64,000 nucleotides of DNA from an uncultured Actinomycetes bacterium (lineage in GTDB: Bacteria > Actinomycetota > Thermoleophilia > UBA2241), in NCBI GenBank assembly GCA_963709345.1, contig CAVPVX010000004.1, forward strand, positions 32,001 to 96,000. The letters are read 5' to 3'. Position 1 is the stretch's first letter, and every line of letters starts with the position of its first letter. A program made the translations under genes and the position numbers. Shown here one piece after another: positions 8,970-42,805 of the stretch. The notes under the pieces are model-generated. The model searched no databases, was not told the DNA's origin, and worked only from the letters and a program-made list of their open reading frames with translations.

Positions 8970-9449
8970 TCAGTCGGAGGGCTCGCGTTCGGCGAGCCGC
9001 TTGCGGCGCCGCTCCCGGGCTTCGTCGAACCAGTGGCGCTGTTGGTCGGTCTCCGGCGTCAGTTGCGGCACGGGGATGGGTCTGCCGCTGTCGCTCAGCG
9101 CCACGAACACAAGGTAGGCGGAGTTCGTGTGCGTGGCCATCCCGGTGGTGAGATCCTCCGCTTCGACGCGCACGCCGACCTCGACGGACCTGGTGCCGGT
9201 GTAGTTGACGTTGGCCATGAGTCGCACGAGGTTGCCCACGCGCACCGGATGGTGGAAGTCGATGCGGTCGATGGCCGCCGTAACGACCCGGGTGCGGCAG
9301 AAGCGGAAGGCGCAGGCGCCGGCGGCCTCGTCGATGAGCTTCATCATGATCCCGCCGTGGATGTTGCCCATGAAGTTGGCGTCGGCGGGCTGCATCAGGT
9401 GGGTGAGCATGAGACTGGTCTCGCTGCCGCGCGGCAGTGGTTCGTTCAT
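8970..9449 (-). CDS. acyl-CoA thioesterase (HotDog fold)
   Basis: DANFMGNIHGG..MKLIDEAA, SVEVGVRV, YLVFVAL. Confidence 0.9.
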   Translation of the reverse strand: MNEPLPRGSETSLMLTHLMQPADANFMGNIHGGIMMKLIDEAAGACAFRFCRTRVVTAAIDRIDFHHPVRVGNLVRLMANVNYTGTRSVEVGVRVEAEDLTTGMATHTNSAYLVFVALSDSGRPIPVPQLTPETDQQRHWFDEARERRRKRLAEREPSD

Positions 9450-9473
9450 GGGGTCACCTGGCGAGTAGGAAGG

Positions 9474-9671
9474 TCAGATGTCGAGAGCGCCGGGTGAGCG
9501 CCGACGACGGCGGTCGCGGGTGCTGCGCTCGCCGCCACCCTTGCGCTCGGTGCGACGCTCGCCGTGACGGCGGTCCAGGATGACCTTGACGTTCGGATTG
9601 TCCCGGTAGTGCTCAACGAGCCGGCGAAACGCCTCTTCACCGAGCTCCGGTGGTACGACGCAGTAGATCAC
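9474..9671 (-). CDS. small hypothetical protein (65 aa) with DRR/ERR arginine motifs
   Basis: GTG start after GGGAG; MIYCVVPPELGEEAFRRLVEHYRDNPNVKVILDRRHGERRTERK...RDRRRRR; own extended -10 TGCTACCGT upstream. Confidence 0.7.
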   Translation of the reverse strand: MIYCVVPPELGEEAFRRLVEHYRDNPNVKVILDRRHGERRTERKGGGERSTRDRRRRRSPGALDI

Positions 9672-9745
9672 GGCGGTCTCCCGGTTGCCCGCGGCCAACG
9701 GTAGCACATGCCCGAGACCCCGACCACTGCTCGGGAGAGGTGGAT

Positions 9746-9801
9746 GGAAAGGGCCGGAGCCGACCGTTTCGTCAGCTCCGGCCCTCTGAAGGGGGTACCG
9801 C
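9746..9801 (-). ncRNA. candidate sigma28-dependent small RNA
   Basis: Lies between a sigma28-type promoter (9808-9835) and a 15-bp hairpin plus UUUCC (9746-9785); no start codon inside; C-rich 5' segment GGUACCCCCUUC. Confidence 0.5.
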
Positions 9802-9807
9802 TAAGGA

Positions 9808-9835
9808 GTATCGGCAACGGGCCACGGGAGCTTGA
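9808..9835 (-). promoter_or_regulatory. sigma28 (FliA/WhiG/SigD)-type promoter
   Basis: TCAAG-N15-GCCGATAC on the minus strand. Confidence 0.72.
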
Positions 9836-9972
9836 GGCCCCATGTGGGGATCGTGCGGCCTGGCGCGGAGCGGCCGGCCTCCGTGATTGGGCGCCGTCTC
9901 GCGGGCCGCCCGCCGCGTGTTCCGCGTCTGGTAAGCTACCGTGACCGCGTGGTCGCGAGTCAGGGAGTATGC

Positions 9973-10125
9973 GTGTTCCCGTACTACGATGACATCGTCA
10001 CTGCCGTGCCCGAGTACGACCGGTATCTCGGACTCACCGCGCTCGAGGCGTCCACGGACAGGCTGACCGCGCTCCATGCCGGCAAGCGCGCCGGGCGCGA
10101 CCGAGTCGTGGTGGGTGGCCGGTGA
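9973..10125 (+). pseudogene. chimeric remnant ORF: N-terminus of an unrelated protein fused to a GGDEF C-terminal tail
   Basis: VFPYYDDIVTAVPEYDRYLGLTALEASTDRL followed by TALHAGKRAGRDRVVV, compare AALYVAKRAGKDRVET in the next gene; GGGAG RBS and TGgTAAGCT promoter retained. Confidence 0.5.
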
Positions 10126-10156
10126 GCCGTCGTGCCGGCCGGGAGGGTCGGCGCCG

Positions 10157-12337
10157 ATGAGCCGGCGCCGCGAGCAAGGGGAGGCGTTCGCCCTCGCATC
10201 GGACCTGAGACTGGCCATCGCCGCGAGCCCGGGCCTGGGGGAGATGCTGTCCGTGATCGCGCGTCGCGTCACCGAGACGCTCGGCGTATCCGAGTGCGAC
10301 ATCTACGAATACCGGCCGGAGGCGGGCGCGCTTGTGGCCACCGCGCTTTGGACGGCCGAGTCCGACGCCAGGGATGCCGAGTGGCTCGGCAGCGCGTTCG
10401 CGGTCTCCGGCCGCCCGAGCTACGAGCGTCTGCTGGCGGAGCGCACCATCCGCCAGCACCACGTTGACGACCTCGAGACGCCGGCGCAAGACAGGGAGAT
10501 CATGGAGCGCTGGGGCGAGAAGAGCGTGCTGTCGGTGCCGCTCCTGTTCCAGGACGCCGTCATCGGCGCCCTCACGCTCGTCGAGAAGCGCGCACCACGG
10601 CGGTTCACGGACGACGAGGTGAGCCTGCTCGAGCTGCTTGCTGTGCCGGCCGCGGTGGCCGTCAACAACGCACGCATGTTCCGGCGCGAGGCGGAACAGA
10701 GCCGCCGCCTGGGAGCGCTTCTCAGCGCCAGCCGCGTGATGACCTCGACCATCGACCTCGACCGGCTCCTCGCGACCATCACCCGGGCCGCGCGCGAGGC
10801 TCTGGACACCGCTGAGTGCGCGATCAACACGTACGACGCGGAAGCGGAAGAGCTGACCGTCGTTTCTCTGGACCAGCGTGAGCCGGAGCCTGAGGGAGAG
10901 CGCTGGATCGGCAGGACGTACAGCCTTGCCGACTTCCCCGCCGACCGCGAGATCCTCTACGGCGGCAGGCTCGTCGAGGAGAGGGTCTCCGACCCGGAGA
11001 CGGACGAGCGCAACAGGGCCGACATGCTGAGGAACGGCGAGACGAGCTTCCTCAGCGTCCCGCTCGTGTACGAGGGCCGGCCGACCGGCCTGCTCGTGTT
11101 CATCGAGACCGACGTCGAGCGGCGCTTCGCCGAGGAGGAGCGCGGCCTGGCCGCCGCCCTGGGAGAGCAGGCGGCGGCGGCCATCCACCACGCCCAGCTC
11201 ATGCGTGAGGCCGAGACCCAGAACCGGCGGCTCGCGCTGCTCCTCGAGTCGACCCGGGCGATCAGCTCGAGCGTCGACCTGGAGGACGTGCTCAACACGG
11301 TGGCCCGGACGGCTGGCGAGCTGCTCGGCAGCGAGGAATGCCAGATCCAGGAGTACGACCGCGCCGCGAACACGGTGAAGCCCGTCGCGCTCTGGCAACG
11401 CCGACCAGACGAGCTCTCGCCGCAGAGCCTCGGCCAGACCTTCTCGCTCGATGACGAGCCGGCCGAGCACGACTTCCTCGGGGCCTGCGAGGTGCTCGAG
11501 CAGCGGTACTCCGACCCGGATCTGCCGGAGACCACGCGGGAGGCCTTCGAACGCTTCGGCGACCGCGCCTACCTGAACGTGCCGCTCGTCTTCAACGGCG
11601 GGCCGGTGGGCGTCCTGGTCCTGGTCGAAAAGGAACAGGAGCGGCGTTGGACGAACGACGAGGTGGCGCTGGCGCAGGGACTTGCCGAGCAGGCGGCAGT
11701 CGCCATCGAGCACGCCCGCCTGTACAAGCGGGTACAGGACCAGGCGGTCACCGATGGGCTCACCGGGCTGTTCAACCACCGCTACTTCTACGAGCGTCTC
11801 GACCAGGAGATCGCCCGAGCCCGGCGCTATGGCACCCCCGTCTCGCTGCTCATGATCGACCTGGACGACTTCAAGGCGTTCAACGACCGGAACGGCCACG
11901 TTGCCGGCGACGCGGTGCTGCGCACCCTGGCCGCCGTGTTGCGCTCCGAGCTACGGCAGAATCTCGACATCGCCGCTCGCTACGGCGGGGAGGAGTTCGC
12001 CGTGATCCTCCCCAACACACCGGTCGACGGTGCGTCGGAGGCGCAGATGGAGATGGATCTCACCGGCAGGATCGTTGAGGGCGGCCGCGGCGGTGACCCG
12101 CCGCCCCCCGGGCATCGCGAAGGCGCGGAGCTTGTCGCCGAGCGCATTCGCCGGCGCATCGCCTCGACCCGGTTCGCGGGCGCCGGCGGGGACATCCTGC
12201 CCGGCCTCACGGTGAGCATCGGCGTCGCCGTCTTCCCGGGGCGCACCACGCAGCCGGAGAGCCTTGTGGGGCACGCCGACGCGGCGCTCTACGTGGCGAA
12301 GCGCGCCGGCAAGGACCGCGTGGAGACGTATGGATGA
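10157..12337 (+). CDS. diguanylate cyclase with three GAF domains
   Basis: Three repeats of LSVPL...G.L...E....R.F...E; DGLTGLFNHRYF, IDLDDFKAFND, RYGGEEF, ADAALYVAK. Confidence 0.93.
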   Translation: MSRRREQGEAFALASDLRLAIAASPGLGEMLSVIARRVTETLGVSECDIYEYRPEAGALVATALWTAESDARDAEWLGSAFAVSGRPSYERLLAERTIRQHHVDDLETPAQDREIMERWGEKSVLSVPLLFQDAVIGALTLVEKRAPRRFTDDEVSLLELLAVPAAVAVNNARMFRREAEQSRRLGALLSASRVMTSTIDLDRLLATITRAAREALDTAECAINTYDAEAEELTVVSLDQREPEPEGERWIGRTYSLADFPADREILYGGRLVEERVSDPETDERNRADMLRNGETSFLSVPLVYEGRPTGLLVFIETDVERRFAEEERGLAAALGEQAAAAIHHAQLMREAETQNRRLALLLESTRAISSSVDLEDVLNTVARTAGELLGSEECQIQEYDRAANTVKPVALWQRRPDELSPQSLGQTFSLDDEPAEHDFLGACEVLEQRYSDPDLPETTREAFERFGDRAYLNVPLVFNGGPVGVLVLVEKEQERRWTNDEVALAQGLAEQAAVAIEHARLYKRVQDQAVTDGLTGLFNHRYFYERLDQEIARARRYGTPVSLLMIDLDDFKAFNDRNGHVAGDAVLRTLAAVLRSELRQNLDIAARYGGEEFAVILPNTPVDGASEAQMEMDLTGRIVEGGRGGDPPPPGHREGAELVAERIRRRIASTRFAGAGGDILPGLTVSIGVAVFPGRTTQPESLVGHADAALYVAKRAGKDRVETYG

Positions 12338-13913
12338 GCGCGCCGGGATGAAGCGCGTCGGCGGATCGCTCGCGGGCGCAGTGCCCGGGCGTGAGGCCGG
12401 CGACCTCCTGACCGCGGTCGTCGCGACTGTCGGCGATTCGCTCGACGTCTGGTCAGTCGACCTGTGGACCTTCAGTCGCGACGCCGACACGCTCGTGTGT
12501 CGCGCCTACTGGTGCCGTGACGGCGCCGCCGCCGGGTGTCTCGGCGCGGTCGTCGCCCTCGACCAGAGCCACGACCTTCGTCGGCTGGTGCTGGCGGCCG
12601 AATCCGTGGAGCGGCACGTCGACGACGATCTGTCTCCCGCGGACGCGGCCGCGCTGACGCAGCGCGGCTATACGACCCGCATCGATCTGCCGCTGCTGGC
12701 CGGCGCCGAAGTGCTCGGCGTGCTGAGCCTCGCCGAGACGCGGTCGGTGCGGCGCCTCTCGGACGCCGACCGAAGCCGGCTCCAGGCGCTGGCCCGGCTC
12801 GCCGCGGTCGTGATCCGCACGACTGAGCTGTACGAGGCGGAGTCCGACCGCGGGCGTCGGCTCGTGGCCTTGCTTGATGCGGGCCGTGGCATGGCGTCCA
12901 CGCTCGAGGTCAGGGCGATGGTCGCTGCTATCCGGGGCGAGGCTGCCAGTCTCCTCCCGGGAGCGCCGTGCGAGGCGGACGTGGTTCTGCGGCAGGACGA
13001 CGGCTCGTACGCGCGTGTTGCGGCGAGCGATGTGGGCGACCGCCCGGGCGCCGCCGGGTGGCGCGCCGACGCTCTGGCTCGTCAGGCCGTCGACCTGCGG
13101 CGCCCGGAGCAGGATCGGACGAGCGACGGGCGGGCTCGCCTGCTCTTGCCGCTGGTCGCCGCGGGTCGAGCGCTCGGCTATCTCGAGCTGACGGCAGCGC
13201 TTGAGCGCCGGTATCGGGAGCGCGAGGTGGAGCTGGCCATGCTCCTCGCGGACCAGGCGTCGGGCGCTCTCGAGAACGCTCGCGCCTATCGCGCCGTCGA
13301 GAACCGCTCGGCGACCGACACGCTCACCGGCGTGTACAGCCGCTGGTACTTCTACGAGCGGCTGTACGCCGAGGTCGCCCGGTCTCGCCGCTACCACCAG
13401 CCGTTGTCGCTCGTCGTCGCCGAGCTGGACGGATACGACGACCTCGTGACCGACCGCGGCGCCGGAGTCCGCGACGCGGTGCTCGTCGCGATCGCGCGTC
13501 TGCTGGTCAACAGCCTTCGCCAGAAAGTCGATGTGGCGTGCCGGCTGGGAGGAGGCCGATTCGGGCTGCTCCTGCCCGCCACGCTGCATGGGCCGGGGGG
13601 CGCCGGACTGGTGGCGGAGCGCGTGCGGCGGACCGTCGACGAGACGCGACTGGTCGACGACGACCTGGGGCCGCTGGGCCGCTTCACCATGAGCCTCGGG
13701 GTCGCCGGCTACCCCGGCGATGCGGACGATGCGGACGAGTTGGCGGCGTCAGCTGAGGAGATGCTCGGGCGGGCGCGCGCTGCCGGCGGCGACAGGGTGG
13801 AGCCGCCGTTGCCGGAGCCCGAGGAAGAGGCTCTCGAGGATCAAGCTCCCGATGCGGAGGGGCAGGCGGGCGCGGACGAGGGCGCGGACGCACCCGGCGG
13901 CGGCGCTAGCTAG
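12330..13913 (+). CDS. GAF-GAF protein with degenerate GGDEF domain
   Basis: DTLTGVYSRWYF; active site reads RLGGGRF; AELDGY in place of DLDxFK; overlaps the upstream DGC stop. Confidence 0.88.
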   Translation: MDERAGMKRVGGSLAGAVPGREAGDLLTAVVATVGDSLDVWSVDLWTFSRDADTLVCRAYWCRDGAAAGCLGAVVALDQSHDLRRLVLAAESVERHVDDDLSPADAAALTQRGYTTRIDLPLLAGAEVLGVLSLAETRSVRRLSDADRSRLQALARLAAVVIRTTELYEAESDRGRRLVALLDAGRGMASTLEVRAMVAAIRGEAASLLPGAPCEADVVLRQDDGSYARVAASDVGDRPGAAGWRADALARQAVDLRRPEQDRTSDGRARLLLPLVAAGRALGYLELTAALERRYREREVELAMLLADQASGALENARAYRAVENRSATDTLTGVYSRWYFYERLYAEVARSRRYHQPLSLVVAELDGYDDLVTDRGAGVRDAVLVAIARLLVNSLRQKVDVACRLGGGRFGLLLPATLHGPGGAGLVAERVRRTVDETRLVDDDLGPLGRFTMSLGVAGYPGDADDADELAASAEEMLGRARAAGGDRVEPPLPEPEEEALEDQAPDAEGQAGADEGADAPGGGAS

Positions 13914-25189: not shown

Positions 25190-25405
25190 TCAGGACGCTT
25201 TGGTCTCGTGCGGCTCGCGCCAGTCGCCGGCCGGCGCGCCCGTGCGGGCGCGCATCACCGGTGGCCGCGGCCGCTCGACGTCCATCAGGGTGAGGTCGAT
25301 GCTTCCGCACGCGGGGCACATCAGCGATCGCGTGTCGTGAGGCACGCCCTCGGGTGTGCGAAAGCGGTGCCGACATTCGGCACACTGGTACTCGCTGCCA
25401 GGCAT
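25190..25405 (-). CDS. small zinc-ribbon protein (FmdB-like)
   Basis: MPGSEYQCAECRHRF...CPACGS; RBS AAGGGAG. Confidence 0.75.
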   Translation of the reverse strand: MPGSEYQCAECRHRFRTPEGVPHDTRSLMCPACGSIDLTLMDVERPRPPVMRARTGAPAGDWREPHETKAS

Positions 25406-25586
25406 CGTGGGTACTCCCTTCAGTGGCCCACATCTAGAGTGTACCCTCCCGCGCCGTTTCCCAGTGGGCAGATGTGGGTTACGACGGGGCGCGGGGCGCC
25501 CGAAGCGTGTGCCGCGCCGACAGCGTGCGACGCCGGGTGGGCGCCGGCCGGCGACAGCGTCGCCGGCGCCCGGTAGACTGGAGCGC

Positions 25587-41734: not shown

Positions 41735-42805
41735 TCAGTCGAGCAACCGGCTGAAGTTGCCGGTGCCCCAGGGTGAGGCGCCCACGGCCGCGGCGACCGC
41801 CGACGCGTCGTTGCCGCGGCGCAGGGCGGCGATGATGCCGTCGTAGAAGCCGTTCTTCATCGTGATCACGGTCGCCTCCAGCCCCTGCTTCCAGCTCGTG
41901 TACGCCTTGACTCCGACCGAGTTGAAGATGCTCGCTCCAGGCATCGACTGCGTCGTGTTCAGCGGGTTGTAGTAGGCGGTGTTGTACCAGTGGCCGCCCT
42001 CGGCCATCTCCCAGGCGGTGACGGCGGCGAGGTTGTCGGCGGTCACCGGCAGTCGCATCGCCACGAGCAGCGCCTTCGCCCAGGTGAGCTGGTTGAACTC
42101 ACCGTTCTTGGCCATCGCCAGCGCCGCGCCGAGGCCGCCGCTGGCGAGGATCTTCTTGATGCGCTTGGTCACGTCCTGGAGGATCGCCTGGCGCTCGACG
42201 AGCTTCTGGTCGAGCTCGATCTTCTGGTTCTGGACCTCCTGCTGGGCGACCACCGCCTCTTCGCGCTCGTCCTCCACCCGGCGCGCGAGGCGGCGCGCCT
42301 CGCGCGCCAGGCGCTGGGCCTCGTTCTCGGTGCGGCGGTCCTCCTCCGCTATGGCGCGCAGCAGCGCCTGCAGCGTGTCGATGTCGGCGAGGGAATCCAT
42401 GCTCGAAAGCAGGTCGAGCCAGTTCAGCTCACCGGTCTTGTACATGGTGGCGGCGCGCCGTGCGAGGATCAGACGCTGCTGCTCGAGGTCCGCTTCGGCG
42501 CGGGCGAGATCACGACGCGAGCGCTGCAGCCGGACGTTGACGGCATCCAGTTCCTGCTGCGCCTCTATGAGGCGCCGGCCGACCTGCTGGAGGTCCTGCT
42601 GCAGGCCGGACATCTCGGCGCGTACGCGCTTTGCCTCGCGCTGCAGCTGGGGAAGCGACGGGGCGGCCGCCGCCTGCGGGGCGGCCACGGCGGCCAGCAG
42701 CGCCAGCGTGAGCGCCAGGATGGCCGCGGCGACCGCGGCCGCGCGGCGGGGTGTAGGTCTCACCGGCAGATGGCGTGTGGGGGTGATGGGGCTGTCTCCG
42801 GCCAT
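41735..42805 (-). CDS. secreted coiled-coil (PcsB/CwlO-like) protein with putative peptidoglycan-hydrolase C-terminal domain
   Basis: Signal peptide, long coiled coil with RAATMYKTG, C-terminal AWEMAEGG..NPLNTT..GVKAY. Confidence 0.72.
   Translation of the reverse strand: MAGDSPITPTRHLPVRPTPRRAAAVAAAILALTLALLAAVAAPQAAAAPSLPQLQREAKRVRAEMSGLQQDLQQVGRRLIEAQQELDAVNVRLQRSRRDLARAEADLEQQRLILARRAATMYKTGELNWLDLLSSMDSLADIDTLQALLRAIAEEDRRTENEAQRLAREARRLARRVEDEREEAVVAQQEVQNQKIELDQKLVERQAILQDVTKRIKKILASGGLGAALAMAKNGEFNQLTWAKALLVAMRLPVTADNLAAVTAWEMAEGGHWYNTAYYNPLNTTQSMPGASIFNSVGVKAYTSWKQGLEATVITMKNGFYDGIIAALRRGNDASAVAAAVGASPWGTGNFSRLLD

Follow-up and report, generated by a model that had tools for sequence, protein, structure and literature searches.

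WhiG is the cyclic di-GMP (c-di-GMP)-gated sigma factor of Actinomycetota, and its regulon has so far been described as a set of protein genes, namely those for sporulation regulators, pili, chemotaxis and c-di-GMP enzymes. In basal Actinomycetota, the gate is reported to act through RsiG (PMC8325347; bioRxiv 10.64898/2026.01.14.699351), and in Rubrobacter radiotolerans the WhiG regulon is reported to comprise type IV pilus genes and five diguanylate cyclase or phosphodiesterase genes, with single-motif RsiG anti-sigma factors also found in Thermoleophilia (PMC8325347). Both regulon studies sought promoters only before genes or no more than 200 bp from a start codon, and the main texts of both contain neither the term sRNA nor small RNA (PMC8325347; bioRxiv 10.64898/2026.01.14.699351); thus, an RNA member of the regulon is not described in those two studies. 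The Streptomyces coelicolor small RNA (sRNA) scr1906 is whiG-dependent, with no WhiG-type promoter upstream, and this dependence was judged to be indirect (PMC2602773). In Proteobacteria and Campylobacter, sRNAs under the flagellar sigma-28 factor FliA have been reported, including UhpU, MotR, FliX and FlgO of Escherichia coli (PMC10578931) and a FliA-dependent sRNA of Campylobacter jejuni (PMC11187230). Here, we analyze a putative sRNA gene in a 64,000-nt stretch of a genome of an uncultured bacterium of the class Thermoleophilia (contig CAVPVX010000004.1, positions 32,001 to 96,000; hereafter the window, in which all plain coordinates are given). The reading that we favor, with modest confidence, is that positions 9802 to 9746 (approximately) of the minus strand hold an independent, WhiG-dependent gene for a base-pairing sRNA of about 55 nt with an anti-Shine-Dalgarno-like 5′ seed. 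The comparative case for a predicted conserved, structured RNA of this length, with a WhiG promoter and an invariant C-rich 5′ end, is strong; that the locus is transcribed, where exactly the RNA starts and stops, that it acts in trans and represses at ribosome-binding sites, and which mRNAs it targets are inferred.

On the minus strand, the element spans positions 9835 to 9741 and consists of TCAAG, a 15-nt spacer, GCCGATAC, TCCTTAGC, GGTACCCCCTTCAG, a hairpin and an TTTCCATCC tail. The −35 box TCAAG (9831–9835) is of the WhiG/sigma-28 type, with the family consensus GCT(C/A)AAG and the form T[AC]AA[AG] across 51 loci, and the −10 box TTGCCGATAC (9808–9817; family consensus CTGCCGATAC) contains GCCGATAC at 9815–9808, which fits the published −10 motif GCCGATAA. 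A variable stretch, TCCTTAGC (9800–9807), lies between the −10 box and the putative 5′ seed GGUACCCCCUUCAG (9786–9799), which is anti-Shine-Dalgarno-like, unpaired in the RNAfold centroid and built around the family-wide core UACCCCCU. Then follows a GC-rich hairpin of 17 bp with the 6-nt loop GAAACG (arms 9787–9771 and 9764–9748), which we read as an intrinsic terminator, and the pyrimidine-rich tail UUUCCAUCCA (9741–9750). The transcription start is predicted at about 9802–9800, from the usual distance between start and −10 box at sigma-28 promoters, and the 3′ end at about 9748–9744. The seed resembles the anti-Shine-Dalgarno tail of 16S rRNA, from which it differs by an unbroken C5 run; a pattern search of the assembly did not retrieve the 3′ end of its own 16S rRNA, so the comparison is with that tail as generally known.

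An original prediction, made from the letters of this DNA, had laid out the −35 box, −10 box, seed and hairpin on the minus strand, and every one of these elements is present at the coordinates given. Its hairpin also stands, except that RNAfold forms 17 bp with two wobble pairs in place of the 15 bp with a single U-G pair that had been noted; UUUCC follows the stem directly. The hairpin reaches −36.4 kcal/mol compared with −20.5 ± 3.1 in 200 shuffles (z −5.09), none of which was as stable. As had also been noted, the element contains no start codon: read along the minus strand, the stretch from 9802 to 9746 lacks ATG, GTG and TTG alike, and it holds no open reading frame (ORF). The element sits in an intergenic gap of about 370–450 nt, with a divergent gene on one side and a small gene on the same strand on the other, and a consensus scan of 9000–10600 called no sigma-70-type promoter. 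At the sequence level, the locus therefore has the features of an sRNA gene, with its own promoter and hairpin, no ORF, a divergent upstream gene and a separately promoted downstream gene. By covariance model, there is one full-length copy in the genome, the 12 further matches being hairpin-only and scoring at most 32.3 bits.

The promoter TCAA-N16-GCCGATAC agrees with the published WhiG (WhiG2) consensus T(A/C)AA-N16-GCCGATAA (bioRxiv 10.64898/2026.01.14.699351), and T(A/C)AA-N16-GCCGA has likewise been given as the WhiG consensus (PMC2602773). The strict pattern T[AC]AA[AG]-N14-16-GCCGATA occurs seven times in the 3.1-Mb genome compared with a mean of 0.7 (range 0–2) in 20 mononucleotide shuffles, so that the promoter arrangement exceeds chance. 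Other WhiG-type sites in the genome (strict ones, plus a looser-pattern site at C3:72145) precede a T2SSE+MshEN (PilB-like) ATPase, a protein with HD_5 (HD-GYP-type) and MASE9 domains, two NlpC/P60 hydrolases, one of them behind the looser-pattern site, and two proteins without a Pfam family. This set resembles the Rubrobacter regulon with its pilus and cyclase or phosphodiesterase genes (PMC8325347). Two WhiG-type matches, at C7:708366 (minus strand) and C7:708567 (plus strand), face away from each other with about 200 nt between them, the one directed toward the HD_5+MASE9 gene and the other toward an Arg-rich ORF that is probably no real gene. A second WhiG-type match in the window itself, TCAAG-N15-GCGCCGATAC (approximately 42861–42835, minus strand), lies upstream of an ORF at 41738–42805 (minus strand) for a secreted coiled-coil protein of 356 amino acids with no Pfam family.

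Conservation of the seed and stem in relatives had been named beforehand as a test of the sRNA, and both proved to be conserved, together with the promoter, across the genomes of the family. A blastn search with a 261-nt query matched 22 of the 24 further genomes in the genus, compared with none of 16 that represent other families in the class. All 20 loci that were fetched share one layout, C(T/A)(C/A)AAG, 15–16 nt, TGCCGATAC, a few free bases, GGTACCCCCTTCA and a GC-rich hairpin, the inner part of which differs between species. We then searched 185,579 species genomes with the promoter-free pattern GGTACCCCCTTCAN{1,5}GGCCGG, which covers only the seed and the stem foot. Among the 64 loci retrieved, 50 are the hairpin element, in Thermoleophilia or Actinomycetota metagenome-assembled genomes (MAGs), and 49 of these 50 carry T[AC]AA[AG]-N14-16-GCCGAT ending 4–12 nt before GGTACC, the 50th having GTCGAT. 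The remaining 14 are chance matches in Proteobacteria, Acidobacteria, other actinobacteria and similar taxa, and none of them has either the promoter or the hairpin.

In the conservation profile of 51 loci, the −35 box GCT[C/A]AAG and the −10 box CTGCCGATAC are kept, whereas the spacer is free. GCCGAT is present at 50 of the 51 loci and GTCGAT at the remaining one, and the spacer after T[AC]AA is 15 nt at 39 loci, 16 nt at 11 and ambiguous at one. The stretch after the −10 box measures 7–8 nt at 49 loci and 10 nt at two, with a column identity of 30–60%, and from GGTACC (GGUACC) on all positions are invariant; GGTACCCCCTTCA is invariant throughout, but the loci were chosen with that same string. 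Independently of this selection, diverged family members hold a C5–7 run at the same place. Because the bases after the −10 box are free and invariance sets in at GGTACC, the conserved RNA seems to begin at the transcription start or within two bases of it.

The stem covaries. In an alignment of 47 matches to a covariance model that includes the full stem (R2; one of the rows is antisense), which was fitted to the model and hence is biased toward structure, 96.9% of 677 cells form standard pairs, and two-sided changes occur in 10 of 15 pairs (64 cells). None of 500 shuffles reached the observed values, and sliding the 3′ partner by 1–3 columns lowered pairing to 31–61%. The same hairpin of 15–18 bp was obtained in single-sequence folds of 20 of 20 species, and when counted by hand from the stem base, GC, CG, AT and TA pairs all occur at the same inner positions. 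This covariation supports the original prediction.

These data bear on whether the locus is an RNA gene at all. It could instead be a conserved DNA feature, an operator with an inverted repeat, or a hairpin that terminates transcription from upstream; in some family members (G069, G072, G003 and G006), the −35 box is immediately preceded by the end of a same-strand gene, which the hairpin could also terminate. In the window, however, the neighboring upstream gene is divergent, so no protein-coding gene reads into the hairpin, and the same arrangement holds in many relatives. Furthermore, compensatory stem changes indicate that selection acts on a single strand in its folded form, and free bases between the −10 box and the seed, beside an invariant seed, fit a transcript start better than an operator. 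We consider this explanation very unlikely, and return to the sRNA gene in what follows.

The first covariance model (R1) missed diverged copies in g15–g20, g24 and a subclade of g1. In 15 R1-negative genomes of the family, inspection of the 330 nt upstream of the small gene revealed a diverged copy in 14, each with a WhiG-type promoter, a C5–7 run 8–16 nt later and a long hairpin, but with changes in the stem and in the bases flanking the seed. Altered seeds include GUACCCCCUUCACGACGGGCCCGGG in g15 and AUCCCCCGAGAGGGCCG, UCCCCCCUUGCAGGGCCGCG and GGUACCCCCCUAGGACGGGCCGGG in other diverged members; further lineages carry CCCCCGAGAG, CCCCCCUCAG and CCCCCCUAGG. A family-wide pattern, TMAARN{14,16}SCCGATN{8,16}CCCCC, is present in 85 of 89 family genomes. 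In 83 genomes, by hand comparison of coordinates, the match lies on the same contig and strand as the small gene, no more than about 450 nt upstream of it, and about 17 matches lie elsewhere compared with about 13 from a reversed-pattern control. One genome (G093) has its match at a contig end and another (G066) carries the GTCGAT variant; G042, G086 and G009 yielded no element at this position, and G061 retains only a degenerate copy. In seven other families of the class, the element is absent from 20 of 20 small-gene loci sampled, where the small gene directly follows another gene. By this distribution, the predicted RNA gene, with its core UACCCCCU, is an innovation of one family of uncultured soil Thermoleophilia (11 genera in the collection), kept at one locus.

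Some matches were set aside. Second “full-length” matches in five other genomes (L081–L085) are ordinary terminators with neither seed nor promoter. Two loci were left out of the synteny count: L077, which has a C-rich stretch and a hairpin and no recognizable WhiG-type promoter, and L078, which is unrelated. Within the genome, an identical 45-nt match of promoter plus C run occurs on two contigs (C9:34576–34620 and C10:2987–3031), as does an identical gene start (C9:32871 and C10:1282); such identity suggests either a repeat or an assembly in which contig ends are duplicated.

In 75 of the 89 family genomes, the sigma-factor gene is intact and the FliA/WhiG model TIGR02479 scores above its cut-off (270–284 bits). 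In the genome studied here, it matches in two frames at C7:51093–51771, with 142.3 and 117.4 bits, each below the cut-off of 189.6, and the same kind of split was seen in several other genomes. FlhA (PF00771, FHIPEP) was not found in this 98%-complete genome; thus, the predicted sigma-28-family factor is WhiG-like rather than flagellar. The proposal that promoter, C-rich 5′ stretch and hairpin form one sRNA unit is partly supported, in that the three are conserved together and the stem covaries. At three loci from different species (L007, L011 and L017, in G001, G023 and G010), the −35 region of the sRNA, CAAGGTATCGGC, includes an inverted GCCGATAC facing the divergent gene, which suggests putative back-to-back WhiG-type promoters or a palindromic binding site.

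The gene downstream of the element encodes a small protein of 65 amino acids (MIYCVVPPEL..., with an Arg-rich tail) at 9474–9671 on the minus strand, its true start being GTG 9671, whereas the longest ORF would open at GTG 9707. The extended −10 noted for it earlier is confirmed as TGCTACCGT at 9706–9698 (minus strand), outside the sRNA, and would be the gene's own promoter. A TGnTAnnnT-type extended −10 is found in all 32 displayed loci, about 25–35 nt before the small-gene start, leaving a 5′ untranslated region (UTR) of 20–30 nt, and likewise in diverged family members, while the stretch from the hairpin to this promoter ranges from about 20 to about 200 nt and is unconserved in sequence. 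Of the 89 family genomes, 88 have the small gene, as do 112 of 201 genomes from the class; it lies downstream of the element at 33 of 33 loci, the gene on the other side varying. Its product is highly conserved, with the features MIYCVVPPELGEE...DRRxGERR...RDRRRRR; it has no Pfam family, and its look-alikes in the Atlas are all annotated as hypothetical. In the structural model, residues 1–32 form a beta-alpha-beta unit (predicted local distance difference test score 85–90), and the remainder, including the Arg-rich tail, is disordered. Next follows a thioesterase gene (Pfam 4HBT; 8970–9449, minus strand). On the other side, a GAF-GAF-GAF-GGDEF gene (Pfam; 10076–12337, plus strand, with a later in-frame ATG at 10157 that may be the start) diverges from the element, and a second ORF of GAF-GGDEF type, its domains read by eye from the translation, lies at 12264–13913 (plus strand). 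In about half of the relatives, the divergent position is likewise occupied by a GAF-GGDEF gene.

This constant neighborhood raises the alternative that the element is a WhiG-driven leader or attenuator of the small-gene/thioesterase operon, in which the hairpin would be regulated or leaky and the 5′ stretch would bind a read-through factor, maybe the small protein itself. The element precedes the small gene in the same orientation at all 33 loci, in 14 of the 15 diverged members and in 83 of 89 genomes; the weak terminator tail makes read-through plausible, and the basic, disordered tail of the small protein could bind nucleic acid. Against a leader, however, stand the conserved extended −10 and short 5′ UTR that the small gene possesses past the hairpin, and the lack of conservation, in sequence and in length, between hairpin and promoter. 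The folds of 20 species show no conserved antiterminator, a 4-bp CCCU/AGGG pairing alone competing with the 17-bp stem, and 14 nt is too short for a ligand-sensing fold. Additionally, the small gene exists without the element at the 20 loci from other families. The original prediction had mentioned such an attenuated leader as its alternative; the small gene's own promoter and its occurrence without the element weaken the idea, yet the element is upstream wherever both are found. Overall, we regard a leader as rather unlikely, and the independent sRNA gene remains the reading that we pursue below.

As an sRNA gene, the element would be transcribed by RNA polymerase with a WhiG-type (sigma-28 family) sigma factor, giving an RNA with a single-stranded 5′ end of 14–16 nt, GGUACCCCCUUCAG, followed by a stable terminator hairpin. 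The seed could then pair with G-rich ribosome-binding sites of the form (C)UGAAGGGGG(UA) and block translation initiation, and the sRNA would extend the WhiG regulon to the post-transcriptional level. The tails at the 51 loci are all C/T-rich with short T runs, and at 21 of them, including all of genus g23, a second run of four to five C residues follows the hairpin (e.g. CUCCCCCUUUCC; C4 run in 21 of 51); thus, in many members the RNA may have a further single-stranded C-rich motif besides the seed.

The reverse complement of the seed is CUGAAGGGGGUACC, and when this 14-mer was searched in the genus with at most one mismatch, nearly all matches were the sRNA gene itself, the sole other recurrent site being CTGAAGGGAGTACC in three genomes. 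In the window, this recurrent site is the candidate target site CUGAAGGGAGUACC (25410–25423, minus strand), which covers the Shine-Dalgarno sequence of a gene for a zinc-ribbon protein of 71 amino acids (25405–25190, minus strand; Zn_ribbon_8 at 26.9 bits, under the Pfam cut-off of 34.4). The site is complementary to the seed at 13 of 14 positions, with a central A:C mismatch, and the duplex reaches −22.1 kcal/mol, which only 5 of 5953 crude start sites genome-wide attain. Among 30 orthologues in the genus, whose proteins are 49–97% identical, 22 have TGAAGGGAGT(A/G)CC, and the duplex is at least as strong as −19 kcal/mol in 24. The zinc-ribbon gene is absent from eight g1 genomes with diverged seeds, which may reflect shared ancestry only. 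The 5′ UTR of this gene (25405–25445, minus strand) is better conserved than its coding sequence, with a possible GUGG(G)/(C)CCAC stem holding the Shine-Dalgarno sequence in its loop, and a −10-like box, GGGTA(A/C/T)nnnT, is conserved just upstream.

More broadly, about 10–17 crude gene starts have GAAGGGG(G) in the Shine-Dalgarno window. The genes with GAAGGGGG in this window include transport genes (a sodium:solute symporter, two amino-acid permeases, two ABC ATPases and a solute-binding protein), S9 and M6 peptidases, an EAL protein and a REC-PAS-HD_5 protein; as a set of putative targets, they are suggestive. The site offered as an example by the original prediction, GGGGGTA before ATG 20467, is a 7-nt match to the seed only. 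Target lists based on energy alone consist mostly of chance GC-rich matches. Two further candidates were rejected, namely the whiG mRNA, with a duplex of only −14.5 kcal/mol, and the small gene's own ribosome-binding site as a target in cis, where the complementarity is of a generic purine-rich kind and differs between genera.

Several observations weigh against an independent, trans-acting, WhiG-dependent sRNA. First, the reading frame of whiG in this genome (locus L156, C7:51093–51852) shifts near C7:51445–51452, with 142 bits for the N-terminal half and 117 bits for the C-terminal half. This split is either an assembly indel or a true frameshift, and if the frameshift is real, the promoter would be silent in this organism. 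In addition, two regular-expression searches for the RsiG motif E(X)3S(X)2R(X)3Q(X)3D, a crude test, yielded nothing convincing. Second, the terminator tail is weak, with 3 T/U only in this genome, and the consensus scan, whose rule is at least five T in eight bases, called no terminator at the hairpin because only three T follow the stem. Third, throughout the 11 genera the element keeps strictly to its place before one and the same gene, which would also fit a role in cis. Fourth, any purine-rich Shine-Dalgarno sequence is partly complementary to the seed, so chance matches are expected, and none of the four candidate targets (zinc-ribbon, HrcA, RtcB and KhpA) has a site that is conserved family-wide. 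The central A:C mismatch occurs in all zinc-ribbon orthologues but one, the site is missing in 6–8 of the 30, its bases also join the GUGG/CCAC stem of the 5′ UTR, and three distant homologues (g21 and g23) lack it despite an identical sRNA seed. The HrcA site AAGGGGGTA is retained in 14 of 30 orthologues and the KhpA site AGGGGGTA (site consensus GGAGGGAGUAG) in 2 of 30. RtcB, the best site by energy (−26.3 kcal/mol), was rejected, as this site is unique to this genome (1 of 18).

An invariant seed, yet without an equally conserved complementary site among the four candidate targets, is also what a protein-binding or decoy RNA would present. The C-rich 5′ end might bind a protein, such as the KH-domain protein KhpA, the gene for which is present in the genome, or might mimic the 3′ tail of 16S rRNA, with no specific mRNA pairing. 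However, a single C-rich site on a 55-nt RNA would make a poor sponge, and known Gram-positive C-rich sRNAs work by base pairing, as reported for 6C (PMC6486639). Such a decoy appears quite improbable to us, and base pairing in trans remains the preferred mode of action of the predicted sRNA.

If so, a wider role can be proposed, albeit tentatively and with considerable doubt. The RNA could be the post-transcriptional output of the c-di-GMP/RsiG/WhiG switch, an anti-Shine-Dalgarno mimic made on release of WhiG, the C5 run of which would out-compete the ribosomal anti-Shine-Dalgarno sequence at GGGGG-type sites. It might thereby lower the mRNAs for nutrient uptake and c-di-GMP phosphodiesterases and feed back on the switch, and the RNA and the Arg-rich protein could form a dedicated pair.

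If the sRNA is real, it would be the first RNA member of the WhiG regulon, universal in one family, and an example of a sigma-28-type sRNA outside Proteobacteria and Campylobacter. It would also add an RNA family absent from Rfam to the Thermoleophilia, a class with almost no RNA biology, and offer a small, defined model, a 14-nt seed plus one hairpin, for C-rich seeds in Hfq-less, high-GC bacteria, the value of which is limited in that all carriers so far are uncultured MAGs. The literature searched turned up no directly WhiG-driven sRNA and no sRNA of Thermoleophilia. Consistent with the original prediction, which did not recognize the RNA as a described family, none of the 4227 Rfam families matched at the gathering threshold, either in the window or in 13 loci from other species. 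The nearest likeness, a weak one, is to the Streptomyces sRNA Scr3202 (RF02833), which has a C-rich 5′ part and then a terminator hairpin; however, the match scores 20.2 bits against a gathering threshold of 52 (E = 5), and the 5′ hairpin of the Scr3202 model is not formed in the element, which is thus no member of that family. The 6C family was not matched at the gathering threshold, nor was it among the five weak Rfam matches for the element. The C-rich-seed sRNAs of Gram-positive bacteria, 6C/B11 of Actinobacteria (PMC6486639) and RsaE/RoxS of Firmicutes, resemble the candidate in having single-stranded C runs, which in those RNAs are reported to pair with G-rich sites near the Shine-Dalgarno sequence, with no need for Hfq. 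In 6C, the C-rich motifs lie in hairpin loops, whereas the element has a single motif at the extreme 5′ end.

Among sRNAs linked to sigma factors of this type, scr1906 and the predicted RNA are both actinobacterial, and the element, putatively tied to WhiG and known from sequence alone, has a direct and conserved promoter match. What the locus has in common with the regulon described in basal Actinomycetota is the consensus T(A/C)AA-N16-GCCGATAA of the promoter, the class and, among the predicted targets of the sigma factor here, a pilus ATPase and an HD-GYP protein (PMC8325347; bioRxiv 10.64898/2026.01.14.699351). With the FliA-dependent sRNAs, it has in common that a small RNA would be placed under a flagellar-type sigma factor, at a promoter of the same consensus type, as a post-transcriptional arm. 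The E. coli FliA sRNAs, however, are reported to be UTR-derived (PMC10578931), whereas the element would stand alone as a gene that has a promoter and a terminator to itself; the sequences are unrelated, and the host is a non-flagellate actinobacterium with a WhiG-like sigma factor. To conclude, the candidate RNA belongs to no described family and, judging from its layout, is predicted to work like a C-rich-seed base-pairing sRNA under a sigma-28-type factor.

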